DNA from: a virus
Taxonomy: Duplodnaviria; Heunggongvirae; Uroviricota; Caudoviricetes
Virus record (IMG/VR): IMGVR_UViG_2534681831_000020
Coordinates: 1 to 35,013 of that record
Direction: 5' to 3' (one strand)
Length of the DNA: 35,013 nt
Of the stretch, positions 24,053 to 25,098 are shown piece after piece (position 1 is the first letter of the stretch; each line of letters opens with the position of its first letter). The position numbers were made by a program, and so were the translations under genes. A model generated the notes under the pieces. It worked only from the letters and a program-made list of their open reading frames with translations, was not told the origin of the DNA and made no database searches.

Positions 24053-24766
24053 TCAATAATCAAGCCCTTGCCTGGATACATATCTGTCTGGCGGGAAGCC
24101 ATAATAGCGGTGAAATACAGAAATAAAGTAGGACCTGCTTGAATAACCGCATTTTTCTGCTATAGCCTGTCCATATCCATGCCGGGAACATAACATATTT
24201 ACAGCAACACGCATCCGCTCTTCCAGCAACAAGCGACTGAACATGCCCCCTTCATTTTTCAGTTTTGTCTTTAACAAACTCTCACTCATATGCAACTGTA
24301 GAGCAATCGCACCAAGCGTCCAGCTTGCTGATATATCTGTCTGAATTATCGCCCTGACTTTGGCACTTATGCTGGATAAACATCCACTTAAAAACAATGA
24401 CATCCGTTCATCTGTTTCAAACAGAGACAGGCAGGCCATCATAAGAAACATATCCGTGACCTCTCCGGAAAATCCCTGGCTGGTAATTAAAGCCGCAGCC
24501 AACGCAGGATTGTTGGGTTCCAGCAACAGGTAAAGCGGAATGTCAGTCAGACGAGTCCTCGTCAGCTTATGCTGACTTTCCAGATATTGACTTACGACGG
24601 ATTCGCTTATATCGACAATTTTAACTTTGCCATAATGCATAAGGAAAAGCTCCCTGATGCATTTGGTGGCCAGAACGACTGAGCCTGGCTTAAGTGACAA
24701 CGTATCCTTTTCAAGAAAAATATTAATTGGGGAGCAAACCATGATAACTGAACAGACAACAGCCAT
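24053..24766 (-). CDS. AraC-family transcriptional regulator (prophage cargo)
   Basis: 237 aa; C-terminal tandem helix-turn-helix with AraC signature ...WTLGAIALQLHMSESLLKTKLKNEGGMFSRLLLEERMRVAVNMLCSRHGYGQAIAEKCGYSSRSYFISVFHRYYGFPPDRY; gene is visibly AT-rich compared with neighbouring phage genes. Confidence 0.75.
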   Translation of the reverse strand: MAVVCSVIMVCSPINIFLEKDTLSLKPGSVVLATKCIRELFLMHYGKVKIVDISESVVSQYLESQHKLTRTRLTDIPLYLLLEPNNPALAAALITSQGFSGEVTDMFLMMACLSLFETDERMSLFLSGCLSSISAKVRAIIQTDISASWTLGAIALQLHMSESLLKTKLKNEGGMFSRLLLEERMRVAVNMLCSRHGYGQAIAEKCGYSSRSYFISVFHRYYGFPPDRYVSRQGLDY

Positions 24767-24900
24767 TATAATTTACTTTCATTAGCAATTTGGTTAGCTC
24801 AATTATAGCCCCAAAAGGTAAATTATCATCAACACATAAGCAAAGGACTGACAGGTCGTCGCCCCCCACCAGCCGCCCATTCACCACAAATAAAAAGCCT

Positions 24901-25098
24901 TCAGGACTGAAGGCGTCTGTAACAACCGCACTGATAGTCTGCCAGACCCGCCATAACAAGCTGGGTCAGTATTAACTGGCAGCGTTCGCGTGAAAGGTAA
25001 GTATTCTGCGCAATCTCCCCGACTGTCGCCGGTTCGGTAACGCTTAATTCATTAAACACCACTCTGGCGGTTTCTGTCATATCCTGCTGTTTTAGCAT
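24901..25098 (-). CDS. small winged-helix protein, possibly PapI/FaeA-like regulator
   Basis: About 60 aa, ...EPATVGEIAQNTYLSRERCQLILTQLVMAGLADYQ resembles the PapI/FaeA recognition helix region; weak. Confidence 0.3.
   Translation of the reverse strand: MLKQQDMTETARVVFNELSVTEPATVGEIAQNTYLSRERCQLILTQLVMAGLADYQCGCYRRLQS

Follow-up and report, generated by a model that had tools for sequence, protein, structure and literature searches.

The 35,013-nucleotide (nt) stretch of DNA analysed here (the window; IMG/VR virus record IMGVR_UViG_2534681831_000020, Caudoviricetes) comprises the greater part of a lambdoid prophage, read on the minus strand. Its open reading frame (ORF) at 24053–24766 on that strand, 237 amino acids (aa) long, is an intact AraC/XylS-family regulator gene and, judged from its sequence, a psrB allele; psrB stands for "prophage-encoded secretion regulator B" and is known from enterohaemorrhagic Escherichia coli. 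As a whole, the locus is very probably best explained by a psrB allele with PsrB-like function, seated as a cassette in a slot that holds a DNA methyltransferase gene in related phages, and transcribed from its own promoter as well as by late read-through. The gene is not new: it is a known regulator in a known genomic context, the effect of PsrA/PsrB-type proteins on the GAD regulon and on type III secretion has been described since 2011, and two conservative positions distinguish the window allele from the characterised PsrB. By closest genome match, the host of the prophage is an O111:H8-like E. coli. Strain 8B (O111:H8) matches best, at 99.9% over 6.6 kb with the nest of insertion sequence (IS) elements included, and the locus of O111:H- strain 11128 matches the window at 99.8% without the inner IS.

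A first-pass annotation, made from the sequence alone, had placed two ORFs here, the AraC-type gene and a 65-aa ORF at 24901–25098, also on the minus strand, and both are found at these coordinates. Its AraC-family call agrees with Pfam, in which PF00165 is matched in two stretches (50.3 bits, E = 2.4e-13, cut-off 26.6) and PF12833 over residues 155–230 (39.8 bits, E = 5.8e-10, cut-off 33.6); with these scores above the cut-offs, the C-terminal domain has the two helix-turn-helix motifs of the AraC/XylS family. The protein falls in PHROG 1450. It had been considered that the gene might be an inactive fragment, which it is not, because the full-length ORF is collinear with the YdeO model of NCBIfam from the first residue. 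Many database entries of the same protein begin at the internal Met43 and are therefore 195 aa long. The comparison with the PsrA, PsrB and PatE class that the annotation had proposed gave 99% identity to the copy in O-island 57 (OI-57) of EDL933, 91% to psrA of Sakai Sp4 and 37% to the presumed PatE, and the first two values place the protein among the Psr regulators.

Against WP_000301797.1, the EDL933 OI-57 protein, 235 of 237 residues are identical over equal length. The two substitutions, H196 for Y and I202 for V, are both conservative, and H196 is the residue found in PsrA. Complete O157:H7 genomes contain two psr copies each. The first is ECs_1087 in Sakai Sp4, which has been called psrA (PMC13502914, 2026) and which, read from an upstream ATG, also has 237 aa, 91% of them in common with the window protein. 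The second is WP_000301797.1, at 1,905,274–1,905,987 in resequenced EDL933, a locus that falls within OI-57 (1,849,324–1,929,825), the island to which z2104, or psrB, has been assigned (PMC8565820). The two O157 paralogues share 215 of 237 residues (91%), and their published identity is 90% (PMC10877973; PMC8565820). The window and OI-57 also have a common backbone, DUF968-RusA-DUF1133-small ORF-AraC-tRNA-TerB-DUF3927-esterase, and it is this backbone, together with the 235/237 match and the OI-57 position, that identifies the AraC-type gene as psrB.

The resemblance to psrB of EDL933 (z2104, OI-57/CP-933O) thus covers sequence, length and position between the small ORF and ileZ, whereas the loci differ in the host of the window copy, the O111:H8-like strain, in the tRNA genes (three in the window versus two in EDL933) and downstream of the tRNAs, where the window, unlike the EDL933 locus, carries an IS66-family element in which an IS1203 is nested. 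The psrA locus of Sakai Sp4 has the same order of small ORF, psr, ileZ, argN and argO and a near-identical promoter region, but another Q (Phage_antitermQ, 123 aa), a CAAX protease gene and a small ORF that is frameshifted after residue 49. More distant is PatE, presumed from its position in Sp1 to be Sakai ECs_0287: it is a prophage-borne, full-length homologue (37% identity, E = 3e-54), but much more divergent, and its place is the end of a degraded prophage, outside the slot between Q and the tRNAs. PatE (z0321, OI-8) has been reported to activate hdeA/gadE too (PMC10877973). YdeO of K-12 is collinear from residue 1 at 31% identity and provides the best NCBIfam model, yet the window protein is not YdeO, because it scores 108 bits against the cut-off of 348 for the equivalog NF007407. 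The closest solved DNA-binding domains are those of GadX (7e-19), Rns, CsvR and ToxT, and unlike the chromosomal YdeO, GadX and GadW, the window protein is phage-borne.

In a collection of 5.8 billion proteins, nearly every psr homologue belongs to E. coli, and a single partial entry is from Shigella; the family grades from 99% to 39% identity. Among 5,426 complete E. coli genomes, 726 carry the gene, 590 of these with a copy at no less than 99% nucleotide identity, and the exact window protein is present on about 1,000 public contigs. In every source it is named only "helix-turn-helix domain-containing protein" or "AraC family transcriptional regulator"; since so common a protein carries generic names, its annotation could be improved.

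The psrB gene lies on a replaceable cassette at 24029–24864 (minus strand), as delimited by the homology with methyltransferase phages, which breaks sharply at both ends. In phiP27 and Stx2a_1447, this homology extends through the small ORF and the hairpin after it as far as 24830/24865 and starts again at 24028, which is four bases ahead of tRNA-Ile; the slot contains a 352-aa DNA methyltransferase gene in these two phages and psrB in the window. With phages of quite different Q genes (Sakai Sp4, phiP27, the Stx2a phage and Sp6/CP-933N), homology starts at 25232, which is within the right arm of the strong terminator hairpin (25243–25221). The cassette is about 0.8 kb long with a GC content of 42.2%, and the psr ORF has 43.8%, against 51.8% for the window; a GC content at least as low is found in 9% of equal-sized windows across the 35 kb. 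Presence or absence among related phages at one site (psr is absent from Sp6/CP-933N) and deviant GC content (42–44% versus 52%) are what is expected of a moron. Together with the psrB identity, this lower-GC cassette, absent or elsewhere in related phages, agrees with the earlier proposal of a host-directed regulatory moron. The low GC content that the proposal had ascribed to both ORFs is real, if modest, for the AraC-type gene, but not for the small ORF (50%), and the contrast with flanking genes holds against the window as a whole but not against the neighbouring Q-like gene, which itself has 45%. The codons ATA, AGA and AGG make up 4.6 per 100 codons of psrB versus 1.2–2.5 in structural genes, and the Q-like, RusA and small ORFs use them to a similar extent as psrB. 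Of these codons, ATA and AGA are read by the adjacent tRNA-Ile2 and tRNA-Arg(TCT).

In other prophages the two kinds of gene occur together. Divergent Psr paralogues (63% and 59% identity) follow an intact N6/N4 DNA methyltransferase gene in the order Q, small ORF, methyltransferase, Psr (L024, 489–4226; L026, 2012–4223), which shows that methyltransferase and psr coexist in some prophages. In L024, tRNA genes and a TolA-like ORF lie between the two. Seen against these paralogues, the window arrangement looks as if a methyltransferase gene may have been lost or replaced. The module of small ORF, psr and tRNAs is combined with Q genes of three unrelated families (DUF1133, Phage_antitermQ and Antiterm). 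In the inducible phage phiSTEC1575-Stx2k (L002, 3718–6041), a psr gene of about 92% nucleotide identity is directly upstream of ileZ-argN-argO and stx2k. Here psr, annotated only as "helix-turn-helix domain-containing protein", and the Shiga toxin genes adjoin in the same orientation in the late region. The psr slot is just upstream of the stx site of Shiga toxin (Stx) phages. The cassette has its seat in the lambdoid late region, between the conserved 65-aa winged-helix backbone gene and ileZ-argN-argO, and psr and the orphan DNA methyltransferase alternate or coexist at this one hot spot immediately upstream of the tRNA block.

The 65-aa ORF (24901–25098, minus strand) comes first among the genes past the terminator that follows Q, a place it keeps in a large group of enterobacterial lambdoid phages, and belongs to PHROG 331 (function unknown; E = 2.1e-37). 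Its 302 homologues, 63–65 aa long and 78–100% identical, come from E. coli, Salmonella, Klebsiella, Citrobacter, Buttiauxella and Scandinavium. Between the window and Salmonella, 24 synonymous stand against 6 non-synonymous codon changes, and 26 of 36 differences are at third positions, a pattern that marks the ORF as a real gene under strong purifying selection. The small winged-helix fold named in the first-pass annotation is reproduced by an AlphaFold (AF2) prediction of three helices and a beta hairpin, with a mean predicted local distance difference test score (pLDDT) of 89.9. Foldseek against the PDB returned generic winged helices (IclR, MarR/OhrR, SelB and O-methyltransferase N-domains) at E ~1e-3 and TM-scores of 0.7–0.8, and a profile search of the PDB gave nothing below E = 0.06. 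The "TrmB family" name that NCBI gives to homologues rests on a sub-threshold resemblance, because Pfam TrmB (PF01978) scores 18.3 bits against a gathering cut-off of 25.6. What the predicted structure supports is a generic winged-helix fold and nothing narrower. In Salmonella and E. coli prophages the small ORF is followed by an N6/N4 DNA methyltransferase gene and then by holin genes, as also for the PHROG 331 members of most phages (e.g., P27p23 of phiP27), in which the next gene is the methyltransferase and not, as here, psrB. Because it usually precedes the methyltransferase and the homology continues through it, the small ORF is backbone and not psr cargo: a widespread, highly constrained late-region gene.

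These observations bear on the earlier idea that the small protein is a PapI/FaeA-like co-regulator acquired with the AraC-type gene as a two-gene regulatory cargo. Both genes adjoin in every psr locus of the window type, and the predicted fold is, like that of PapI, a small winged helix for DNA binding, although the likeness goes no further than this general fold. No Pfam FaeA match was obtained at E ≤ 0.1 and PapI was not in the top 50 Foldseek PDB matches, so that, on the Pfam, PDB profile and Foldseek results, a specific PapI/FaeA relationship was rejected. The GC content of 50%, the occurrence of the gene in most phages beside a methyltransferase and without psr, its presence in genera where no Psr homologue was found, and the position of the cassette boundary downstream of it all speak against joint acquisition, and a two-gene cargo, already largely refuted, is now a very remote prospect. 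In Sakai Sp4 the small ORF (ECs_1086; L003, 18344–18583) is frameshifted after residue 49 into a 79-aa product with an unrelated tail, while the psr gene beside it is intact, which argues against an obligatory partnership of the two. A different role for the PHROG 331 protein is conceivable, though improbable: it might be a dedicated DNA-binding controller of its downstream gene, co-opted in Psr prophages to gate psrB. Its usual target could then be the orphan N6/N4 DNA methyltransferase in a C-protein-like arrangement, and psrB output would be coupled to the late-gene state of the phage. The basis of this suggestion is adjacency, the purifying selection, which is very strong, and an intergenic stretch whose conservation reaches about 40–70 nt beyond the small ORF hairpin; a search for operator-like repeats of the winged-helix protein found only short two-copy matches.

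For its expression, psrB is placed in a lambda-type late region, of which a Q-like gene and a strong terminator are present and the late promoter is suggested by a conserved, non-canonical arrangement. The Q-like late antiterminator gene (25322–25888, minus strand; 188 aa by ORF call, 184 aa as DUF1133 in the O111 11128 annotation) matches Pfam DUF1133 (E = 3.7e-105), weakly Phage_antitermQ (E = 6e-08), and PHROG 753, "anti-termination protein Q-like" (E = 1.2e-80). It follows the DUF968 gene (26257–27360, minus strand) and the RusA gene (25885–26244, minus strand), and Q has the same place after DUF968/RusA-type genes in lambdoid phages. The candidate tR', an intrinsic terminator (GCCCGC-TTTTT-GCGGG followed by T7; 25221–25243, minus strand), sits 79–101 nt downstream of the Q-like stop and folds at -19.6 kcal/mol (z = -3.64; none of 200 shuffled sequences folds as well). 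A hairpin and T-run with other stem sequences are found at this position in two diverged relatives that have the same Q type. A candidate late promoter pR' (TTGCTT, 17 nt, TTCAAT; 25304–25332, minus strand) overlaps the Q-like stop and is followed by a -10-like TACGCT (25298–25293, minus strand). The same two relatives preserve this arrangement as TTGCAA/TTGAAA, 17 nt and TTCAAT/TTGAAT, then TAAGCT/TAGGCT, and the pattern with TAnGCT resembles a Q-responsive promoter with a sigma-dependent pause element, as far as we can infer from alignment. A consensus promoter scan from the Q-like gene to the terminator called no promoter; the candidate pR' was missed because its -10 has no A at position 2. 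Two further candidates in this region were rejected. Between the Q-like gene and the terminator, Rfam gave a weak full-length match to the small RNA (sRNA) isrK (19.8 bits, E = 0.25), which a Salmonella relative of the same Q type did not show and which is ascribed to chance, and a likeness of the terminator region to StxS/tR' of Sakai Sp5 was dropped, the homology being limited to the tRNA block.

Both ORFs lie, as the first-pass annotation had it, between the Q-like gene with its candidate tR' and the tRNA genes (23773–24024, minus strand), and the co-transcription of psrB with the late operon that was proposed from this order is plausible. The expression of psrB need not depend on the late transcript, however, because a hairpin follows the small ORF and a promoter-like element lies inside the cassette. 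The terminator-like hairpin (GCCTTCAG-TC-CTGAAGGC followed by TTTTTATTT; 24889–24914, minus strand) overlaps the small ORF stop; at -11.1 kcal/mol and z = -1.6 it is weak by itself, and it is conserved in methyltransferase-type and psr-type phages alike. The promoter-like element (ATGATA, 16 nt, TATAAT, or alternatively TTGATG with a 19-nt spacer; 24802–24829, minus strand) matches the consensus at 10 of 12 positions and lies 35 nt ahead of the ATG. All six family variants compared (59–100% identity) retain, 33–35 nt before the ATG, a TATA(A/C)T hexamer; two of these variants have a methyltransferase stop codon as their upstream neighbour. A terminator scan found none between psrB and the tRNAs; the first, a strong intrinsic one, follows the tRNA block (23741–23760, minus strand; -14.6 kcal/mol, z = -3.96). 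From these elements, psrB would be expressed in the lysogen from its own weak promoter within the cassette, while transcripts from the late promoter would end at the terminator just downstream of Q and at the second hairpin, behind the small ORF. Once the prophage is induced, polymerase modified by Q would pass both signals, and one transcript would cover psrB, the tRNAs and the lysis genes. An own promoter in the lysogen with late read-through after induction is the most likely arrangement on this sequence. A 10-nt inverted repeat (90% complementary; 24770–24779 and 24815–24824) flanks the -10 element and the ribosome-binding region of psrB; the 77% variant retains it only in part. Should its upstream arm be present in read-through RNA only, the ribosome-binding site could be occluded in late transcripts.

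The function of PsrB has been described in O157:H7. The protein binds the promoter regions of hdeA (-132 to -45) and gadE and raises acid resistance, and, when expressed or supplied in trans, represses type III secretion via GadE and YhiF, like PsrA (PMC10877973). The activation of gadE/hdeA by Psr leads to repression of the type III secretion specified by the LEE (locus of enterocyte effacement) (PMC10877973; PMC8565820). By homology with the O157:H7 protein, the window PsrB would be an AraC/XylS-type activator of the YdeO/GadX branch. It would bind the promoter regions of gadE and hdeA and induce the GAD acid-resistance regulon, upon which GadE and YhiF would repress the LEE type III secretion system; its regulatory targets in this strain are probably the same.

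Several points weigh against a psrB allele that acts in this way from its own promoter. The consensus match of the promoter-like element is not above chance (3 sites found versus 3.8 expected), its -35 is not conserved, and the candidate pR', with its non-canonical -10, is a putative element. The names psrA and psrB were assigned here by elimination and from the position in the genome. In the reviews, psrA is z1789 of OI-50 (PMC10877973; PMC8565820), and no AraC gene was found in Sakai Sp6 or resequenced EDL933 CP-933N when z1789/psrA was searched for, which does not fully agree with the old z-numbering of psrA. The functional statements on Psr are taken from two reviews (PMC10877973; PMC8565820) and one 2026 paper (PMC13502914), and the expression and binding of the window allele are predicted by homology with the O157:H7 protein. 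Moreover, the deletion of psrB alone had little effect on secretion, effects being seen on induced expression (PMC10877973), and native psrB expression may therefore be low.

The last point is shared by a reading in which psrB is intact but largely silent, hitch-hiking in a degraded prophage, for instance under H-NS silencing, with little regulation of the host. The low GC content of the cassette and the nested IS elements in the late region of the prophage are in line with it. An ORF that is intact and nearly invariant at the nucleotide level in most of the genomes that carry it, and that differs from EDL933 by conservative substitutions, one of them to the PsrA residue, is not what such a history would lead one to expect, and a silent copy is doubtful, though the most credible of the alternatives weighed here. 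It is also conceivable that psrB lacks a working promoter of its own and is a passenger of the late operon, made only upon Q antitermination and acting in lytic growth. The gene does lie between Q and the lysis genes in the same orientation, with no terminator before the tRNAs, and the chance-level promoter match and the variable -35 would fit. However, two terminators precede psrB, the spacing between the -10-like hexamer and the ATG is maintained in variants whose upstream sequences are unrelated, and psrA deletion phenotypes have been reported under non-inducing conditions (PMC10877973; PMC8565820). Strict dependence on the late operon is for these reasons unlikely, and the psrB allele with PsrB-like function and its own promoter is preferred.

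On the minus strand, the window continues from the replication genes through DUF968, RusA, the Q-like gene, the 65-aa ORF, psrB and three tRNA genes to an IS66-family element with a nested IS1203-type element, TerB, a NanS-p-type esterase gene, lysis genes and head genes. The tRNA genes, detected by ARAGORN and Rfam and annotated by RefSeq in the 99.8% identical O111 locus, are tRNA-Ile2/CAT (ileZ, 23949–24024), tRNA-Arg/TCG (argN, 23863–23939) and tRNA-Arg/TCT (argO, 23773–23849), all on the minus strand. The interval between the tRNA block and TerB is the stx site in Stx phages. In the window, this interval of the late transcription unit is occupied by the IS nest (about 19838–23567), composed of IS66-family, ISEc47-like tnpA/tnpB/tnpC, the transposase gene of which is interrupted by an IS3-family element of the IS1203/IS629 type (orfA 20914–21240, orfB 21237–22127); the nested form is common only to O111:H8 strains 8B and 8234. 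In a related psr prophage (L028, 4553–4764), the Rfam sRNA STnc100 (185.7 bits) is directly 3' of the tRNA block, where the window has its IS insertion.

Between the terminator and the small ORF, a conserved leader (25105–25232, minus strand) has an identity of 87.8–92.7% to its counterparts in Sakai Sp4, Sp6 and EDL933 CP-933N; for phiP27 and a Stx2a phage the value is about 88%. Sp6 and CP-933N (L004, 14262–14390; L005, 21862–21990) keep this 128-nt leader (88%), lack the small ORF, psr and the tRNAs, and have TerB directly next, so that their locus looks like a deletion derivative. The T-run of the terminator is followed at once by a 42-aa ORF upstream of the small ORF (25092–25220, minus strand), which contains a lipobox-like LSAC and overlaps with the start of the small ORF (ATGCTAA). 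Other strains have these two ORFs joined in one frame, with the product annotated as a 106-aa "lipoprotein". The frame of the 42-aa ORF is not conserved, and it is probably non-coding.

Psr regulators are described as carried by prophages only and have a published association with Pch regulators and effector loci. For the window gene the lambdoid prophage context is clear, and the association with Pch is echoed by a PerC-family remnant at 13340–13579 (minus strand). This 79-aa PerC/Pch-family ORF covers positions 26–89 of the 90-position profile, has a stop codon just upstream and is probably a truncated pch-like gene; it lies within the lowest-GC part of the window (36.7% around 12.6–13.4 kb), and the O111 11128 homologue has an intact PerC-family gene in its place. 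Another probable cargo site of the same prophage is the early-right region, with a stress-tolerance gene of the BOF/YgiW-YdeI family (27702–28046 and neighbouring minus-strand ORFs); a Hok/Gef toxin gene is present there as well in the homologues from O111 and O157.

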